Origin: Candidatus Bipolaricaulota bacterium
GTDB taxonomy: Bacteria; Bipolaricaulota; Bipolaricaulia; Bipolaricaulales; Bipolaricaulaceae
Assembly (NCBI GenBank): GCA_022838705.1
Contig: JALHJZ010000002.1
Location: 213,258 to 277,257 of the forward strand
DNA length: 64,000 nt
Direction of reading: 5' to 3'
The notes beneath the pieces were generated by a model. It saw only the letters and a program-made list of their open reading frames with translations. It had not been told where the DNA came from and ran no database searches. Both the position numbers and the translations under genes were made by a program. Positions 14,113 to 22,765 of the stretch are shown in pieces (the stretch's first letter is position 1; each line of letters opens with the position of its first letter).

Positions 14113-14136
14113 CTGGAGGGGCCCTATAATCCCGAC

Positions 14137-14853
14137 GTGGAGGTCCGCATCGGCTGTTGCGGCTGGTCGGCGCTGCCGCCCGGGGAGGAACGGGGCCGGC
14201 ATCGGCTCCAACTCTATGCTGCCCAGTTCCCGCTCGTCGAGGTCAACTCCACGTTCTACCGCCTCCCCTCGCTCGCGACCGTCCGCCGGTGGCGGGATCT
14301 CGCCGATAGCGTAAACCCGCAGTTCGAGTTCACGGTCAAGGCCCACCGCGGGATCACCCACTACGCGCGGTTCCAGGGCCCCCAAGCCCGCGACGGGTTT
14401 GCACGCTCGGTCGAGGTGGCCCGCGCCCTGCGGGCGAGGGTGCTCCTCCTCCAGTGCCCGCCTTCGTTCTCCCCTGGGCCGGACCACGAGGAGGCCCTGA
14501 CCCAGTTCCTCGCCACGGTGGATAGGGGTGAACTCACCCTCGTGTGGGAGCCTCGCGGGCGGTGGGACGAGGAGCCAGAGCGGGTGGCCGCCCTATGCCG
14601 GAAGTACTCCCTCGTCCACGGCACCGACCCGTTCCGGACCCTCCCCGTCACGAGGGGGGAGATCGCGTACCTGCGCCTCCATGGGTCCCCGCCGGGGGCG
14701 CGGATGTACCGCTACACCTACAGCGACCAAGACCTGGCGCGCCTGCGGGACACTGTCCGGGGGCTGGAGGCCGAACGGGTGTATGTGCTCTTCAACAACG
14801 ACACGATGGTCTCCGATGCCCAAAGGTTCGCGGGGAGGTGGGCCACGGGATGA
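14137..14853 (+). CDS. DUF72 domain protein
   Basis: IGCCGW, VEVNSTFY, FTVKA, LLQCPPSF, YLRLHG, YVLFNN; TATAAT 6 nt before GTG. Confidence 0.88.
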   Translation: MEVRIGCCGWSALPPGEERGRHRLQLYAAQFPLVEVNSTFYRLPSLATVRRWRDLADSVNPQFEFTVKAHRGITHYARFQGPQARDGFARSVEVARALRARVLLLQCPPSFSPGPDHEEALTQFLATVDRGELTLVWEPRGRWDEEPERVAALCRKYSLVHGTDPFRTLPVTRGEIAYLRLHGSPPGARMYRYTYSDQDLARLRDTVRGLEAERVYVLFNNDTMVSDAQRFAGRWATG

Positions 14854-15968
14854 GAGGCGAATTGCGGTGTCCCCTGTGCGACTTCCGCACCGTGCCGAGT
14901 GCGGTACCGCTGCCGTGCCCGGCGTGCCGGGTCCCGCTCGACTACCGGCCGGATCCGCCGGCAGACTTCACCGCTGCAGGTTTGACTGGGCGCGGGGTAT
15001 GGCGGTACGCCCCGTTCCTCCCCGCTGTGAATCCCGTCACCCTGGGCGAGGGGGGGACCCCCCTCATCCCTTCTCTGCGCATCGGCCCTCGCCTGGGGGT
15101 GAACCTCCTGTTCAAGGTCGAGGGGACGAACCCCACTGGCTCGTTCAAGGACCGGGGGGCAGCGGTGCTCGTCGCCGTCCTGCGGTCGTTCGGGGCGAGG
15201 ACGGTGGCCGATGACTCGTCGGGGAACGCCGGGGCGGCCCTCGCCGCCTACGCTGCCCGGGCGGGGGTCCGCGCCGCCCTCTACGTTCCGGCCCACGCCT
15301 CGGGGCCCAAGCTCGCCCAGATCGAAGCCCTCGGGGCGGAACTGGTGCGTGTGCCCGGCCCACGGGAGCGGGCCACGGACGCGGTCCAGGAGGCATGCAC
15401 CGCGGACCCTGACCTCCTCTACGCCTCGCACAACGCCTCGCCGTACTTCGTCGCCGGCCTGACGACAATCGCCTACGAGCTAGGCGAGGAGGGTCGGATC
15501 CCTGACCACGTCGTCCTCCCGGTGGGTGGAGGCGGACTGTTCCTCGGGCTCGCCCATGGGTTCGCCCAGCTACGCGAGCGGGGGTGGATCGGACGGGTGC
15601 CGCGCCTCCACATCGCCCAGCCTGAGGCCTGTGCCCCCCTCGTCCGCGCCGGTGATGGGGGGGACCCGGTCGAACTTGACCCCCGGGCCACGGTGGCCGA
15701 GGGGGCACGGATCCCCCGCCCTGTGCGGGGCCGGGAGGTCCTGGCCGCGCTCAGGGCAGTGGATGGGGATACCGTCACGGTGGGGGAAGAGGAGATCCTC
15801 CGGGGTCAGGCGGAGCTCGCTCGCGAGGAAGGGATCTGGGTTGAGCCGACAGCGGCCCTCGCCGTGGCCGCCCTCCCCGCCCTCATCGCGCGGGGCACGA
15901 TCAAACCTGGGGAGGAGATCGTGCTCCCCCTCACCGGGCACGGGCTCAAGGCGGTGAACCTGCGCTGA
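14850..15968 (+). CDS. thrC: threonine synthase-like PLP enzyme
   Basis: N-terminal CxxC...CxxC, LGEGGTPL, NPTGSFKDRG, SSGNAG, PVGGGGL, EPTAA, LTGHGLK. Confidence 0.8.
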   Translation: MRGELRCPLCDFRTVPSAVPLPCPACRVPLDYRPDPPADFTAAGLTGRGVWRYAPFLPAVNPVTLGEGGTPLIPSLRIGPRLGVNLLFKVEGTNPTGSFKDRGAAVLVAVLRSFGARTVADDSSGNAGAALAAYAARAGVRAALYVPAHASGPKLAQIEALGAELVRVPGPRERATDAVQEACTADPDLLYASHNASPYFVAGLTTIAYELGEEGRIPDHVVLPVGGGGLFLGLAHGFAQLRERGWIGRVPRLHIAQPEACAPLVRAGDGGDPVELDPRATVAEGARIPRPVRGREVLAALRAVDGDTVTVGEEEILRGQAELAREEGIWVEPTAALAVAALPALIARGTIKPGEEIVLPLTGHGLKAVNLR

Positions 15969-16002
15969 CCCTCGTCCCCAATCCGCGCGGGGGCGGCTTC
16001 GG

Positions 16003-16554
16003 CTAGCCTCCGAACCGATCGCGGCGCACGATCTCCGCGAGGGGCACCCGCTCCACCTCCCGCGGCGTGTACGCGGGCCGGCCGATCGGGAGGAGGGCCA
16101 CGACCCTCATCCCGCGGGGGATGCCGAGAATCCGCTTCACTTCTGCCTCCGCCCGACCCCGCAGCCCCGCCCAATACGAGGCCAGCCCCAAGCTGTGGGC
16201 CATGAGGGCCATGTTCTGCGTCGCCACCGCCCCTGCCTCGATCCAGTGCCCCGGATCCTTCACCGGGTCAACGACAACTGCGATCAGCACCGGTGCATCG
16301 CCGACCCCTTTCCCGGTGAGGGCAGCCTGGCCGCGGCGCGCGAAGGCGAGCCGCTCCACCAGGGCCCCCAACTTGGCCTTCGTGTCCTCGTCCCGCACCA
16401 CGACGAACGTCCACGGCTGGGAGTTGGCGAACGACGGGGCCCACCTCCCCGCCTCGAGGATCGCCTCCACCTCGTCGTCGCTCACCGGCTTCGGCTCGAA
16501 CCGGAGCACGCTCCTCCGGCCACGGATCGCGTTCAGTACCTCGTTCTTCATCAT
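16003..16554 (-). CDS. nitroreductase family protein
   Basis: RRSVLRF, WAPSFANSQPWTFVVV, QNMALMAHSLGL. Confidence 0.9.
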   Translation of the reverse strand: MMKNEVLNAIRGRRSVLRFEPKPVSDDEVEAILEAGRWAPSFANSQPWTFVVVRDEDTKAKLGALVERLAFARRGQAALTGKGVGDAPVLIAVVVDPVKDPGHWIEAGAVATQNMALMAHSLGLASYWAGLRGRAEAEVKRILGIPRGMRVVALLPIGRPAYTPREVERVPLAEIVRRDRFGG

Positions 16555-17579
16555 ATGCCCTCCGTCTCGTTTGGGTCCCCAAACTTATTCCATGCCACCA
16601 CAGCTGACAAGGGCTTCCGCTCCCGTGGCCCGAGCTCGATCGCGCGGTGCTTATCGCTGAGCGTGCTCGCCTCGCCCCGCTTCCCGATGACGATGAGCGC
16701 GATGAGGATGTACTCCTCCGGGATCCCCAGCGCCTCCTTGACGGCGGGGGGGTCGTAGCCGGCGATGGGGTGGGCGACGAGCCCCATCTGGGTCGCCTGG
16801 ATCATGAGCAGGCCGGTGGCCATTCCACACCCGAATAGGAAGTAGTCGCGCCCATCGGAGAGCTTGCAGTCGAGGTCGCGGTGGCTGGCGAGGGCGAGGA
16901 TCGCCGGGGCACGCTTCGCCCAGTAGTTCCCCCCGGACAGGGCCCCCTTCACCCTGTCCAGCGTTTCCCCTTCCGCGATCACGAACCGCCACGGCTGGTT
17001 GTTGAAGCAGGAGGGGGCGAGGTGGGCCGCCTCGACCAGCCGCTCGAGCGCCTCCCGGGCCACGGGCTCCCCGGACAGGGCACGGTACGCCCGCCGGGCA
17101 CGGATGAGCGGGTTGATGGCCTCGTCCGCGGCCTGCAGCGCCCGCAGCGTGACGAGAACCTCCTCCGCGTGGCCGGCCGCCTTCCCCCGCCGCCATGCCC
17201 AGCGCACGGACCCCGCCCGGTCGAGGAGGAACGTCGCCCGCTGGACCCGGCCCGCGGGCGTGACGACGCAATAGGCCCTCGCCACAGCGCGGTCGGGATC
17301 GGAAAGCAGGGTGAGGCCCCCGCCCGCCGCGAACCGGGCGAGGGTGGAAGGGGAATCGGGCGCGATCCCCACCAGCCGTGCCCCGAGGGAGGTGAACTCG
17401 GGGAGGAGGGCCTGGAAAGCGCGGGCCTCCTCGGCCCAGGCAGGCGTCCCGGCGCGGGGGAAGAAGTGCAGGACGACGTACGAGCCCCTCAGCTCGCGGA
17501 GCGAGACCGCCCCGCCCGCCGCCGACGGCAGCGTGAACTCGGGGGCCAGCCCAACCAGGTTTATCCGGTCCTCGGCCAT
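16551..17579 (-). CDS. fusion of a BCP/peroxiredoxin-like domain lacking the peroxidatic Cys and a nitroreductase
   Basis: N-terminal APEFTLP..VVLHFFPRAGTPAWAEEA..RATFLLD; C-terminal RRAYRA, APSCFNNQPWRF. Confidence 0.8.
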   Translation of the reverse strand: MAEDRINLVGLAPEFTLPSAAGGAVSLRELRGSYVVLHFFPRAGTPAWAEEARAFQALLPEFTSLGARLVGIAPDSPSTLARFAAGGGLTLLSDPDRAVARAYCVVTPAGRVQRATFLLDRAGSVRWAWRRGKAAGHAEEVLVTLRALQAADEAINPLIRARRAYRALSGEPVAREALERLVEAAHLAPSCFNNQPWRFVIAEGETLDRVKGALSGGNYWAKRAPAILALASHRDLDCKLSDGRDYFLFGCGMATGLLMIQATQMGLVAHPIAGYDPPAVKEALGIPEEYILIALIVIGKRGEASTLSDKHRAIELGPRERKPLSAVVAWNKFGDPNETEGI

Positions 17580-17624
17580 GGGAGGGATGATAGCCCCCCC
17601 TCCCGGGCCGGCAACCCGCGCGCG

Positions 17625-18554
17625 TCAGAAGCCGAGCTCGATCCCGACCGTGCTCTGAATGAGGCCGCCGAAATCGAACTGCGTCCGGGAGTAGATGCGG
17701 ACCCAGGAGAACGCCACCTCCACCCACACCTCCTGGGACACGAACCCTCCAAGGTCGAACGCGGTCACAAGCCGGATCGCGACCGGCGGCACCCGCACTC
17801 CGAGGAACAGCTTCGCCCAGTCCAGGCCGAAGCTCCCGGTGAAGTTGAGGCGGAGCCGCGCGCCGAGCTCGGCCTCCGGATCCGGGTAGATGTAGCTCGC
17901 CCCGAGCTCGCTCCACGCGAGGCCGTACGGGTTGAAGAGGACCCGGGAGTCGGCGCGGAAACAGGCGCCCGTGAACCCCAGGTGGAGGAGCTCCTCCTCG
18001 AACCACACCCCAGACACCGCAGCGAGGTCGGTGGCGGGGTCGTCGTCGAGCAGGGAGTCGAGCCCCGTCACGCCGAACCCGGTGAGGCTGCGGGCGAAGA
18101 ACCCCGGGTGCCACGCGACGCCGAGGTCGAGGACAAGCCCGACCGTGTAGTCTGGATCATCACACGGTAGCGCGAGGTTCTCAACGAGGAACAGCCCCCC
18201 GAGCTCCCACGGGCAACACCCCCCGCGGACCTCGAACCAGTACTTGGAGAAGCACGGGTCGAACCTCATCCCGCTTTGGAGGCCGATCCCATCGAGATCA
18301 ACCCCCACCGTGAGGTACGCGGCCTCAAGCCCTGTGAGGGAGAGCTCCGTTCGGCTGATGACCTCCGCCCGGTCGTATGCGAGGGCGAGGGTGACGGCGG
18401 ACGCGAGGTCGAGCGAAGAGGACAACGGCGTGACGGCAACCTCGATCCCGAGTGAGCCGGAGAAGGCCGGGGATTGGGACCAGGATGTGGCACCCCACAC
18501 CAGGGTCACTGCGAGCACACCCAGGAGACGCTTTCTCATCTCAGACCACCTCAT
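17625..18554 (-). CDS. exported beta-strand-rich hypothetical protein (outer-membrane barrel-like)
   Basis: Signal peptide (RKRLLGVLAVTLVWG), alternating hydrophobic strands, C-terminal GIELGF; start 18554 or 18539. Confidence 0.6.
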   Translation of the reverse strand: MRWSEMRKRLLGVLAVTLVWGATSWSQSPAFSGSLGIEVAVTPLSSSLDLASAVTLALAYDRAEVISRTELSLTGLEAAYLTVGVDLDGIGLQSGMRFDPCFSKYWFEVRGGCCPWELGGLFLVENLALPCDDPDYTVGLVLDLGVAWHPGFFARSLTGFGVTGLDSLLDDDPATDLAAVSGVWFEEELLHLGFTGACFRADSRVLFNPYGLAWSELGASYIYPDPEAELGARLRLNFTGSFGLDWAKLFLGVRVPPVAIRLVTAFDLGGFVSQEVWVEVAFSWVRIYSRTQFDFGGLIQSTVGIELGF

Positions 18555-18600
18555 GGGAGGAGGGTACGGAGATGACCAGGCCCAGCGGGGCACACCGGAC

Positions 18601-18632
18601 GGGCCGCCCGGCCTCATTTGTCCGGGCGGCCC
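18601..18632. terminator. perfect 11-bp GC hairpin downstream of the arcE-like gene
   Basis: GGGCCGCCCGG-N10-CCGGGCGGCCC; no clear U-tract. Confidence 0.5.
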
Positions 18633-18644
18633 TGGACCCCTGTC

Positions 18645-19952
18645 TCAGAACCGGGGGAGGAGGTCCGCCACCGTGGGATGGCCGATCTCCTGAAGATCGT
18701 ACCGGACGCGGGTTGACGGCTTCTCGATCGCGATCAGGCGGCGCAGGTCCACCGGCGTCGCGATGACGACGGCGTCGCAGGGGACGCGGGCGATCGTCTG
18801 GGCGAGCTCCTCGATCTGCTTCTTCCCGTACCCCATCGCGGGCAGCACCGGGCCGAGGTGGGGATAGGCTCTGTACACGTCGCCGAGCGACCCCTGGGCA
18901 TAGGGACGCGGGTCGGCGAAGGTCGCCCCGAGCTTCCGTGCCACCACTGCCCCCGCCCCGAACGGCATCTCCCCGTGGGTGACGGTGGGCCCATCCTCGA
19001 TCACGAGCACCCTCCGCCCCGCCACGAGCTCCGGCGCATCCAAGGTGATCGGGGACGCCGCTTCCACAATCCTCGCCCGCGGGTTGAGGAAGGAAAGGGA
19101 GGCCCGCAGCTGCTCCACCGGTTCGAGCCCCGCCGTATCCACCTTGTTGATCACGATCGCCTCTGCCTGGCGGACGAGCACGGATCCAGGCCAGTACGTG
19201 TTCTCATGCCCAACCCGCAGCGGGTCGGCGACGACGATCAGGAAGTCGGGGCGGAAGAAGGGGGAGTCGTTGTTCCCCCCGTCCCACAGGATCACGTCCG
19301 CTTCCGCCTCCGCCTGACGGAGGATCGCCCCGTAGTCCACCCCCGCATAGACGACAAACCCTTCCTGGAGGTGGGGCTCGTACTCCTCGCGCTCCTCGAT
19401 CGTACACTCCGCCCGGTCCAGGTCCTCGAACGACGCGAACCGTTGCACGGCCTGGCGGACGAGGTCCCCGTAGGGCATGGGGTGGCGGACCACGGCGACC
19501 CTCTTCCCCTGTTCGTGGAGGATCTGGGCCACGCGGCGGGTGGTCTGGGACTTGCCTGATCCAGTGCGCACCGCGCACACGGCGACGACCGGCTTCTTGG
19601 CCGCCAGTTGGGTCGAGCGGGGGCCGAGAAGCCAGAAGTCCGCCCCCGCCGCAGCGGCGAGCGCCGCCCGTTCCATCACGTGCTGGTGCGAGACGTCGGA
19701 ATAGGCGAACACCACCCGGTCCACTCCCTTCTCGCGCACGAGGTGGGGGAGGCGCTCCTCCGGCTCGATCGGGATCCCGTTCGGGTAGAGCCGTCCGGCG
19801 AGCTCCGCGGGGTAACGGCGCCCGACGATCCCCGGGATCTGGGTGGCGGTGAACGCGACCACCTCGTAGGCGTCGTTGTCCCTGAACACAACGTTGAAGT
19901 TGTGGAAGTCGCGGCCGGCAGCGCCCATGATGATGACCTTGGTCTTGCGCAT
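18645..19952 (-). CDS. COG2403 cDPG-synthetase-like P-loop protein; probable arginine synthetase (ArcE-like)
   Basis: GAAGRDFHNFN, AFTATQIP, AVRTGSGKSQT, RHPMPYG, TIEEREEYEP, WDGGNND, EDGPTVTHG, LPAMGYG. Resembles the Thermococcus ArcE sequence as I remember it. Confidence 0.72.
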   Translation of the reverse strand: MRKTKVIIMGAAGRDFHNFNVVFRDNDAYEVVAFTATQIPGIVGRRYPAELAGRLYPNGIPIEPEERLPHLVREKGVDRVVFAYSDVSHQHVMERAALAAAAGADFWLLGPRSTQLAAKKPVVAVCAVRTGSGKSQTTRRVAQILHEQGKRVAVVRHPMPYGDLVRQAVQRFASFEDLDRAECTIEEREEYEPHLQEGFVVYAGVDYGAILRQAEAEADVILWDGGNNDSPFFRPDFLIVVADPLRVGHENTYWPGSVLVRQAEAIVINKVDTAGLEPVEQLRASLSFLNPRARIVEAASPITLDAPELVAGRRVLVIEDGPTVTHGEMPFGAGAVVARKLGATFADPRPYAQGSLGDVYRAYPHLGPVLPAMGYGKKQIEELAQTIARVPCDAVVIATPVDLRRLIAIEKPSTRVRYDLQEIGHPTVADLLPRF

Positions 19953-20079
19953 GGATTCACCTCAAGTTAGATGGTGTCGCAACGGCGGGATTATACCCGA
20001 TCCCGGCCCGGGTGAGGCTTCACGATGGCCCCGGCGGCGGACCGGCATCCCCGGCCCGGACCGGGGATAATGGGGGCTT

Positions 20080-21243
20080 ATGGCCCGGCTCACGATCGAG
20101 GAGATCCCGCTCGGGGACCGCCGGCTACGGCAGTTCGTCGCGGTCCCATGGCACATCCACCGCGGGGACCCGAATTGGACCCCTCCCCTCACCGCCGACC
20201 TCCTCGGGAGCCGGCTCCTCGGCTTGACCGGCCTCCTCACCCCCGCCCATCCCTACCACGAGACAGCTGAGGTCACGCACTTCCTCGCCCGCTCCGGCTC
20301 CAACCTCGTGGGCCGGGTGTCGGCCGCGATCAACCACCGGTTCAACGAGTACCACAGAACGAACCTTGGGTCCTTCGGGTTCTACGAAGCGGTCCCAGAC
20401 TACGCGGTCACCGAAGCCCTCCTCGATAGCGCCCGGGCCTGGCTCGCCCAGCGCGGGGTGGACGCGATGCGCGGGCCGGGCGGGTACTCCAACGCCACCC
20501 ACGAGTCCCACCAGGCGGTGCTCGTCCATGGGTTCGACACCCCGCCCACGGTGGAGCTCACCCACAACCCGCCCTACTACGGCGAGCACCTCGAGCGGTA
20601 CGGCCTGCGGAAGGTCAAGGACTATCATGCGTACTGGATTGCTCCGTCCCAGCCCATGGATCCGCGCCTGGAGCGCCTCGTCGCGGCAGCCCGAGCCCGC
20701 CGAGGGATCACGACCCGCCCGTTCGACCTGCGGCATCTCCTGGAAGACGTGGAACGCCTCGCGTGGGTCTACAACGAGGCGTGGGCCGCCAACTGGGGGT
20801 TCCTCCCGATCACGGACGGGGAGGCGAAGGCGCTCGCGAAGAGCCTGAAGACGATCGCCGATCCGGAGTTGATCCGGTTCGCCTACGTGGACGGGGAGCT
20901 CGCGGCGATGATCGGGGCGATCCCGGACCCGAACGTGGCCCTCCGGCCGACGTGGAACCCGGTGCTCGATTGCGACCTCGTGCGGGCGCTGCGCCTCATG
21001 GCCCGTCGGCGCCGGATCCGTACGGCGCGGGTGATGTTCTTCGGGATCCGCCCTCCGTACCGGAAGATGGGGGTGGATGCGGTCCTGTTCCACGAGGTGC
21101 TCACGATCGCCTGGGGGAAAGGGTACCGGGCCGGCGAGGCGTCCATGCTCCTCGAGGACAACGACCTCATCCTGCGGGCCTGCGAGGCGATGGGCGGGCG
21201 CCTCTCGAAGACCTGGCGGATCTACGAAATGCCCATCCCGTAA
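20080..21243 (+). CDS. YghO-like GNAT-fold N-acyltransferase (family includes bacterial ceramide synthase)
   Basis: DPNWTPPL, VGRVSA, FGFYE, MRGP, HNPPYY, NWGFLP, GIRPPYRKMG, LLEDN. Confidence 0.72.
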   Translation: MARLTIEEIPLGDRRLRQFVAVPWHIHRGDPNWTPPLTADLLGSRLLGLTGLLTPAHPYHETAEVTHFLARSGSNLVGRVSAAINHRFNEYHRTNLGSFGFYEAVPDYAVTEALLDSARAWLAQRGVDAMRGPGGYSNATHESHQAVLVHGFDTPPTVELTHNPPYYGEHLERYGLRKVKDYHAYWIAPSQPMDPRLERLVAAARARRGITTRPFDLRHLLEDVERLAWVYNEAWAANWGFLPITDGEAKALAKSLKTIADPELIRFAYVDGELAAMIGAIPDPNVALRPTWNPVLDCDLVRALRLMARRRRIRTARVMFFGIRPPYRKMGVDAVLFHEVLTIAWGKGYRAGEASMLLEDNDLILRACEAMGGRLSKTWRIYEMPIP

Positions 21244-21313
21244 CCGGGGGAGACGAACACCGCCGGTCCCCGGAACACGGATCACGAATAGCGGCGAGCT
21301 GTATAATCCGTGC

Positions 21314-22765
21314 GTGGCTGTGCAAAACAGGATCCGCAAGGTCAGGAAACGCGATCGGTCGCTCGTCGCGTTCGACCAGGGACGGATCATCCACGCCATC
21401 CTCCGGGCGGTGCAGTCGGTGGGCGGGTTCTCCCTCGACCACGTGCCGGGGGTGAACGAGCGCCTCTTCTCGTACGGGGACGACGAGCACATCGCAGAGT
21501 TCCTGTCCGATGTCGTGGTCGCAACGCTCAACCGCGATCCGCGGCACTGGATCGCCAACTTCCCCCCCACCGTCGAGGAGATCCAGGACACGGTGGTCCA
21601 CATCCTGCGGAGCTTCGGGTTCGTCGCCGTGGCTGATGCTTACGAGTGCTGGCGGTGGGGGAAGCACTGGGTACGGGCGGGGGCGATCACGATGGACGAG
21701 TTCGTGGGGAACGGGTACCCGGTCCCCCTCCACCACGAGACGCTCGCCTGGAATCGCGAGCACGGCTGCGACACCGTGGCTGGGCTGAACGAGATCGTCC
21801 GGTTGGGCCACCTCCCCGAGCTCGTCGCCGCCGCCACGGAGCGGTACGAGCGCTCGGTGGACGAGGCCGCCGCGAAGGTCCTCGCCCGCGCCGCAACCGG
21901 GGACCTGCGGGTGATCTGGGTCTCCGGGCCATCCTCATCGGGGAAGACGACGACCACGGTCAAGCTCCTCCAGCGGCTGAGGAAGGAAGGCCTCGAGTTC
22001 CTGATGCTCAACCTCGATGACTACTTCTGGCCCCTGGTCGAGCACCCCACGGACTGGCTCAACGATCGGAACTTCGAGACGCCGGAGGCCCTCGACATCC
22101 AGACCATCAACCGCCACCTGCGCGCCCTCCTCGACGGGCAGGCGATCCAAAAGCCGATCTACAGCTTCAAGGAGGGCCGCCGCGTGGGGACGAAGCTCGT
22201 GCGGCTCAAGGCGGGCCAGCTCCTCCTCCTCGACTGCCTCCACGGGCTCTATCCCCCCCTCACGACCGGGATCGCCCGCGAGGCGATGTTCTGGCTGTAC
22301 ATCGAGGCAGCGAACATGCTCTACGAGGGGGACGGAACGAGCGAACGGTTGACCCAGTTCACGGATGTGCGGCTCCTCCGCCGGATGCTGCGGGATGTCA
22401 AGCACCGCAACCATCCCCCGCTCCAGACCCTCCTCCACTGGCACTACGTGCGGAGCGGTGAACTGTTCTCGATCATCCCCCTGATGGGCCTCGCCGATCA
22501 CGTCGTGAACGGGGGGATGCCGTTCGACCTTCCCGTGCTGAAGCCGTTTTTCCTTCCGGATGGGATCTGGCCGAAGCCAGAGGAGGTCGCTCCCTACGAT
22601 ACGTTCCTCGATGCGCGGATCCGCTACCGGCGCATCGGAGGCTTGCTCGGCCAGGTGGCGGGGCTGACCCTGTGGGAGGCCGAGGACCACGCCCTCATCC
22701 CCGGTGACCACCTCGTGCGGGAGTTCATCGGCGGGAGCACGCTCCAGATCCCCCACAACGAGTAG
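21314..22765 (+). CDS. ATP-cone domain plus uridine kinase-like P-loop protein
   Basis: N-terminal VRKRDRSLVAFDQGRI..AI (ATP cone), VEEIQDTV; SGPSSSGKTT, LNLDDYF, EALD, RLLRRMLRD, NGGMPFDL; GTG 21314 lies 6 nt after TATAAT. Confidence 0.8.
   Translation: MAVQNRIRKVRKRDRSLVAFDQGRIIHAILRAVQSVGGFSLDHVPGVNERLFSYGDDEHIAEFLSDVVVATLNRDPRHWIANFPPTVEEIQDTVVHILRSFGFVAVADAYECWRWGKHWVRAGAITMDEFVGNGYPVPLHHETLAWNREHGCDTVAGLNEIVRLGHLPELVAAATERYERSVDEAAAKVLARAATGDLRVIWVSGPSSSGKTTTTVKLLQRLRKEGLEFLMLNLDDYFWPLVEHPTDWLNDRNFETPEALDIQTINRHLRALLDGQAIQKPIYSFKEGRRVGTKLVRLKAGQLLLLDCLHGLYPPLTTGIAREAMFWLYIEAANMLYEGDGTSERLTQFTDVRLLRRMLRDVKHRNHPPLQTLLHWHYVRSGELFSIIPLMGLADHVVNGGMPFDLPVLKPFFLPDGIWPKPEEVAPYDTFLDARIRYRRIGGLLGQVAGLTLWEAEDHALIPGDHLVREFIGGSTLQIPHNE

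Follow-up and report, generated by a model that had tools for sequence, protein, structure and literature searches.

A Probable Bacterial Orthologue of the ATP-Yielding Arginine Synthetase ArcE in a Bipolaricaulis-Like Genome

The arcE locus and its surroundings

The window, that is, the whole stretch of 64,000 nucleotides analyzed here, carries on its minus strand an open reading frame of 435 codons, which we call arcE (Table 1). The GC content of arcE by codon position is 0.72/0.44/0.90, the coding signature usual for this GC-rich genome. All five sequence motifs quoted in the initial annotation of the locus occur in the translation, including the Walker A motif.

Table 1. Features of the arcE locus, motifs of the arcE product, and arginine-related gene groups elsewhere in the host genome
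Feature	Position	Strand	Remark
arcE coding sequence, 435 aa plus stop	18645..19952	minus	ORF and translation; ATG at 19952, TGA ending at 18645
SD-like GAGGTG	19958..19963	minus	5 nt 5' of the ATG; read from the sequence
Perfect TATAAT, candidate −10 element	19990..19995	minus	leader would be ~30 nt
Three genes downstream of arcE	15570-18617	minus	
Two genes divergent from arcE	20080-22765	plus	
GAAGRDFHNFN	residues 10-20		translation
RTGSGKS (Walker A)	residues 129-135		translation
TIEEREEYEP	residues 184-193		translation
WDGGNND	residues 223-229		translation
EDGPT	residues 319-323		translation
Agmatinase and speE	L090:1168-2864, contig C1 ~46.2-47.9 kb		polyamine route, also arginine-consuming
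arcC cluster	L006:5669-9991, contig C1 ~591.7-596.0 kb		
Saccharopine-dehydrogenase-like gene and OTC	L007:7252-9404, contig C6		

The initial annotation had given arcE a leadered promoter of its own. Both elements on which it relied are present, the TATAAT (19995-19990, read on the minus strand) and the GAGGTG, and the promoter itself comes down to the −10 hexamer: a consensus scan around arcE detected neither a −35 box nor a complete sigma-70 promoter, and it detected no intrinsic terminator. In the window, which is about 68% GC, TATAAT occurs seven times (at 14125, 19990, 21302, 35084, 48121, 53351, and 54580) versus 0.45 occurrences expected from shuffling, an excess which suggests that the window contains strong −10 boxes without recognizable −35 boxes. 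Because of this excess, the copy upstream of arcE is probably a real −10 element, a function assigned to it from its sequence. Several of the hexamers in the window are located just 5' of gene starts, for example, those at 14125 and 54580, before the ORFs at 14137 and 54607, respectively.

Contigs from the metatranscriptome libraries of three studies, with wastewater and sludge samples, cover arcE; they match the locus at 90 to 95% identity and hence come from relatives. In one sample, the contigs break at 19961 to 19976, between arcE and the divergent GNAT-like gene. The contigs are compatible with the expression of arcE from its own promoter but do not demonstrate it: neither transcription nor its start sites or levels can be read from contigs, and such libraries may contain DNA. 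One contig of a relative bridges arcE and the first ORF downstream.

The minus strand continues downstream of arcE, with short gaps between the genes, with a 330-aa ORF that has a hydrophobic N terminus and no family match, a gene that fuses peroxiredoxin (AhpC/TSA) to nitroreductase, and a separate nitroreductase gene; it is possible that arcE and these three genes form an operon. Of the two divergent genes, the first encodes a protein of 387 aa whose match to GNAT is no more than faint, and the second encodes an ATP-cone joined to a uridine-kinase/PRK-type P-loop domain, an unusual pairing. The neighbors of arcE show no link to arginine, and arcE is not adjacent to arcB or arcC in the host genome. 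Elsewhere in the window, we confirmed all of the amino acid catabolic genes that had been named initially, hutI, hutH, gdh, gcvPA/gcvPB, and the gene for threonine aldolase, and with these genes the proposed context of an amino acid fermenter holds.

Sequence, fold, and family of the arcE product

The initial annotation called the arcE product a probable arginine synthetase of the ArcE type and referred to a reaction between arginine and citrulline in Thermococcus kodakarensis. This reaction agrees with the published work, in which the characterized gene is TK2200: ArcE interconverts arginine + ADP + Pi and citrulline + ATP + NH3 (Michimori, Yokooji, and Atomi 2024, PMC11032458). TK2200 is strictly specific for l-arginine, prefers ADP, and is inactive on d-arginine, agmatine, guanidine, and Arg dipeptides. 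The reaction is near equilibrium, with a delta G of about −6.8 kJ/mol; hence, its direction is set by the metabolite pools, and T. kodakarensis is able to grow on citrulline via ArcE. Homologs of arcE are present throughout the Thermococcales, and Bipolaricaulis was named among the bacterial carriers (PMC11032458). All of the ArcE biochemistry comes from this one hyperthermophilic archaeal enzyme.

The host genome has a single arcE homolog, and Pfam and NCBIfam contain no model for the family of its product, which gave only subthreshold P-loop matches. The closest database proteins, from "Candidatus Bipolaricaulis anaerobius" and 96% identical, carry the name "cyclic 2,3-diphosphoglycerate synthase" or "GTPase." The homolog of Pyrococcus horikoshii OT3 (P0400) is 65% identical to the arcE product, with one gap over 435 residues, and the representative of a Thermococcus/Palaeococcus cluster (P0414) is 62% identical over the full length. 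This cluster comprises 201 members with at least 90% identity, and T. kodakarensis is not among the 15 named members listed; the comparison was thus made with Pyrococcus and Thermococcus/Palaeococcus homologs, and the relation to TK2200 is drawn through these congeners. An exhaustive search for homologs recovered 3723 cluster representatives at an E-value of ≤0.001, with full-length relatives being 33 to 58% identical. In the family trees, which were midpoint-rooted and built without an outgroup of cyclic 2,3-diphosphoglycerate synthetases (cDPGS), Bipolaricaulota and Thermococcales share a subclade of 37 of the 124 sequences with a support of 0.90.

The same 37-sequence subclade also contains WOR-3, Synergistota, Chloroflexota, Fervidicoccaceae, and Aciduliprofundum. 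The identity of 65% to the archaeal Pyrococcus protein is at least that to ArcE of other Bipolaricaulota families (60 to 68%). This reflects either very slow evolution of ArcE or its transfer between bacteria and archaea.

The AlphaFold model of the arcE product (39 sequences) has a mean pLDDT of 94.5 and a pTM of 0.92. In the model, the Walker A motif RTGSGKS follows the strand formed by residues 122 to 127, and a Walker-B-like VILWD is positioned at the end of the strand formed by residues 220 to 224. The nearest solved fold is that of the Methanothermus fervidus cDPGS (E = 1e−16, TM = 0.46, root mean square deviation [rmsd] of 16 Å, 14% identity), and the second-best fold family is that of LpxK 4EHY (TM of 0.64 on the target), the structure used by the discoverers to predict the nucleotide use of TK2200 (PMC11032458). 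As modeled, the NTPase core of the protein is of the P-loop type, and its ATP-Mg pocket resembles that of LpxK.

Could the arcE product then be a cDPGS, making the thermoprotectant cyclic 2,3-diphosphoglycerate (cDPG)? The public names of the 96%-identical proteins and of the Thermococcus homologs say so, and the M. fervidus enzyme is not only the nearest solved fold but also the best profile match in the PDB. We nevertheless consider this reading hardly credible. A single-sequence phmmer search matched cDPGS only at an E-value of 0.023 over 114 residues, the family profile matches only positions 210 to 366 with 60 to 78 bits, and the fold alignment has the low identity and TM and the high rmsd given above. 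Moreover, among the Thermococcales proteins that bear the same name are those of Thermococcus, where the arginine synthetase activity was demonstrated. We also examined whether the arcE product clusters with the cDPG synthetases, the outcome that had been set against the original assignment, and with a fold identity of 14% and a partial profile match it does not. The cDPGS name appears to have been carried over from annotation made before the discovery in 2024. This misnaming is systematic across the ArcE family: in NCBI/UniRef, the ArcE orthologues from Thermococcus, Pyrococcus, and Palaeococcus (P0400, P0408-P0437, and P0524-P0537) are named "cyclic 2,3-diphosphoglycerate synthase."

The full-length identity of 62 to 65% and the well-supported subclade shared with Thermococcales support the assignment to ArcE-type arginine synthetases. 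We therefore conclude with high confidence that the arcE product is a bacterial orthologue of ArcE, most likely with a catabolic role in this host. Orthology, fold, and gene content come from the present analysis, and the chemistry of the reaction is taken from the literature.

Arginine-pathway genes in the host genome and in Bipolaricaulota

The host assembly is Bipolaricaulis-like and consists of 1.40 Mb in 45 contigs; because it is 96% complete, absent genes are given as not found. The initial annotation had proposed to look for ornithine carbamoyltransferase (OTC) and carbamate kinase in the absence of arcA, and this is the pattern found in the host genome and in the phylum sample. Carbamate kinase (arcC) is encoded on contig C1 and a bona fide OTC on contig C6, both over the curated cut-offs, and arcE is located on contig C37; the three genes are thus dispersed over three contigs and do not form an operon. 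Searches of the host assembly did not find arcA, argG, carB, pyrB, or argB, nor did they find argH, for which there was only a weak lyase-family match, or ornithine cyclodeaminase; a route for ornithine was likewise not found. HypF is present. The sole arginase-fold protein was considered as an arginase and rejected, because it is an agmatinase (TIGR01230, 205 bits) encoded directly 3' of the spermidine synthase gene speE.

The arcC gene is part of a co-oriented cluster that consists of genes for a GntR-type regulator, carbamate kinase, a YgeY-family M20 hydrolase (523 bits), and a carbamoyltransferase. The latter scores below all curated cut-offs, with 247 versus 281 bits for OTC, 234 versus 288 for N-acetyl-OTC, 230 versus 500 for PTC, and 210 versus 453 for YgeW. 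The cluster may represent a second, uncharacterized catabolic pathway yielding carbamoyl phosphate, and given this cluster the carbamate kinase of the host may mainly serve another pathway. A gene for a 607-aa CysK-like PLP protein is divergent from the cluster. On the same stretch of contig C1 (L006:10007-12508), an ORF of 833 aa has C-terminal 400 residues matching Pus10 (TIGR01213, 453 bits with a cut-off of 200); a match to this archaeal-type tRNA pseudouridine synthase is unusual for a bacterium, and both the true start of the ORF and the reading frame of its N-terminal half are uncertain.

The OTC gene is directly preceded, on the same strand, by a gene for a 410-aa saccharopine-dehydrogenase-like protein (Sacchrp_dh_C, E = 2.5e−46), which may link ornithine to polyamine or lysine-type chemistry. 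Also on this contig (L007:290-1798) is a gene for an RtcB-family RNA ligase; the best NCBIfam match is the intein-containing RtcB, at 609 bits below its cut-off of 1150, and the protein is probably an ordinary RtcB.

Within Bipolaricaulota, ArcE was found in 78 of the 81 genomes searched and in 49 of the 51 high-quality ones. Carbamate kinase is over the cut-off in 39 of 41 genomes and arcA in none of these 41; hence, the presence of ArcE with arcC and without arcA is a core trait of the phylum. The carB gene was detected in 9 of the 41 genomes, with none of the 7 genomes of the host genus, two single-contig genomes included, containing it. Within the host genus, argG was found in none of the 10 genomes searched and HypF in 9 of 10. 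The closed genomes of the genus agree with the absence of carB and argG, and the loss of carbamoyl-phosphate synthetase (CPS) and argG characterizes the genus.

According to the discoverers, arcE lies beside arcB/arcC in "some genomes" only, and adjacency is therefore not obligatory. We determined the linkage by tblastn with the host OTC and carbamate kinase within 6 kb of an ArcE homolog, in a sample of 80 loci from named genomes that was obtained with an 8-sequence alignment and includes no Thermococcales. A partner gene was found at 15 of the 80 loci (carbamate kinase at 14 and OTC at 8), usually beginning right after the stop codon of the ArcE gene. The linked ArcE copies are 51 to 63% identical to the arcE product and scattered over the tree, occurring both in bacteria (Eubacteriales, Aminicenantes, Brocadia, Ignavibacteriaceae, Gaiellaceae, Caldisericia, Bacillota, and Gammaproteobacteria) and in archaea (Woesearchaeota, Micrarchaeota, and Methanosarcinales).

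These data also bear on the substrate. An enzyme with the ArcE fold could have shifted its specificity, with the ATP-coupled deiminase or synthetase reaction taking place on a guanidino or ureido compound other than l-arginine, and several observations would fit with this: the family is large and diverse, as seen in the number of its representatives, the host arcE is adjacent to neither OTC nor arcC, and the carbamate kinase gene clusters with a carbamoyltransferase that falls below every curated cut-off. However, the identity to the Thermococcales proteins over the full length greatly exceeds the values at which specificity usually shifts, TK2200 accepts only l-arginine, and direct linkage to arcC and OTC is seen in relatives with 59 to 63% identity. 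We regard a shifted substrate as quite unlikely and take l-arginine as the predicted substrate of the arcE product.

Proposed role and comparison with known systems

T. kodakarensis is an arginine auxotroph without CPS and argGH; its ArcE works catabolically, each arginine yields two ATP, and the carbamoyl phosphate of the organism has to come from ArcE/ArcB. Because the gene content of the host equals this pattern, we infer the same catabolic use for the host enzyme, and with it the flux direction, the yield of ATP, and the connection to HypF in this organism. Arginine derived from peptides or the medium would be converted to citrulline by ArcE with the gain of one ATP, OTC would cleave citrulline to ornithine and carbamoyl phosphate, and carbamate kinase would use the carbamoyl phosphate to generate a second ATP, giving a total of two ATP per arginine. 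The ArcE-OTC route would probably also supply carbamoyl phosphate to HypF for the maturation of [NiFe]-hydrogenase, because no carbamoyl-phosphate synthetase was found. As pyrB was not found either, HypF is the remaining anabolic consumer of carbamoyl phosphate, and hydrogenase maturation may therefore depend on arginine. The carbamoyltransferase cluster linked to arcC, or carbamate kinase operating in reverse, could be an alternative supply of carbamoyl phosphate.

The reaction is reversible, as illustrated by the growth of T. kodakarensis on citrulline through ArcE, and the same enzyme could be used synthetically, making arginine from citrulline, ATP, and NH3 in place of argininosuccinate synthetase and lyase. 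The discoverers raised this option for some bacteria without argG/argH (PMC11032458), neither of these two genes was found in the host, and OTC and carbamate kinase are present. However, the candidate bacteria of the discoverers have CPS and ornithine biosynthesis, whereas carB and argB were not found here, so that neither CPS-derived carbamoyl phosphate nor ornithine made de novo would be available. In addition, the organism has many genes for amino acid catabolism, and its gene pattern is that of the arginine-auxotrophic Thermococcales. A synthetic role is thus unlikely, and we favor arginine breakdown.

Taking the catabolic reading further, we tentatively propose, as a possibility somewhat less likely than not, that carbamoyl phosphate comes only from the ArcE-OTC route, both in the CPS-less genus and in most of the phylum, and that arginine is an essential nutrient, providing both two ATP and the precursor of the cyanide ligand made via HypF. 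Bipolaricaulota might then be the first bacterial phylum with this pathway as a core trait.

The identification of arcE corrects a widespread annotation error, the naming of these proteins as "cyclic 2,3-diphosphoglycerate synthase" or "GTPase." For the uncultured phylum Bipolaricaulota (Acetothermia), it also provides metabolic models with a further ATP-yielding step; the yield from arginine would be two ATP and not one. If the proposal is true, these bacteria are arginine auxotrophs whose sole enzyme for the breakdown of arginine is energy conserving and whose hydrogenase maturation perhaps depends on arginine. This would be useful for cultivation, for example, through the supply of arginine, and for the interpretation of metatranscriptomes. 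The finding does not define a new kind of system. The 2024 paper (PMC11032458) already covers the family and the reaction it catalyzes, the distribution in bacteria, and Bipolaricaulis as a carrier genus. Our work adds modest extensions, namely, the quantitative tie to Thermococcales, the core status across the phylum, and the CPS-less, HypF-positive pattern.

The closest known system is that of T. kodakarensis. Like ArcE/TK2200, the arcE product belongs to proteins of about 435 to 450 aa, aligns collinearly over its full length, with 62 to 65% identity to the Thermococcales orthologues, and has cDPGS and LpxK 4EHY as its fold neighbors. Both organisms have arcC, OTC, and HypF, and in both arcA, CPS, and argG/argH were not found. 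The proposed core trait in Bipolaricaulota would parallel the 2026 Thermococcus result. Unlike T. kodakarensis, a marine hyperthermophile, the host is a bacterium that probably lives in anaerobic digesters or wastewater, its pathway genes are dispersed, and its ArcE activity is predicted. In contrast to the archaeon, pyrB was not found in the host, making a role in pyrimidine synthesis probably inapplicable, and neither was ornithine cyclodeaminase, so that a link to proline is not evident.

Two other P-loop proteins are more distant. The M. fervidus cDPGS (8ORK/8ORU; also 9SXB), which is the best profile match among solved structures (E-values of 5e−21 to 1e−15), is distantly homologous and shares the overall multidomain P-loop architecture; the wrong name in public records derives from this enzyme. 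It differs from the arcE product in its substrate and reaction, shares 14% identity and a profile match limited to the central P-loop part, and the rmsd of 16 Å indicates a different arrangement of the domains. LpxK, the tetraacyldisaccharide 4'-kinase of Aquifex aeolicus (4EHY), has in common with the arcE product the P-loop kinase core and the ATP-Mg pocket; however, it is 12% identical, lacks the N- and C-terminal domains of ArcE, and is a lipid kinase with an unrelated substrate.

The functional counterpart in the arginine deiminase (ADI) pathway is ArcA, which likewise converts arginine to citrulline and NH3 and feeds OTC and carbamate kinase. Unlike ArcE, ArcA has an unrelated fold and is hydrolytic and irreversible, conserving no ATP at the step from which ArcE gains one.
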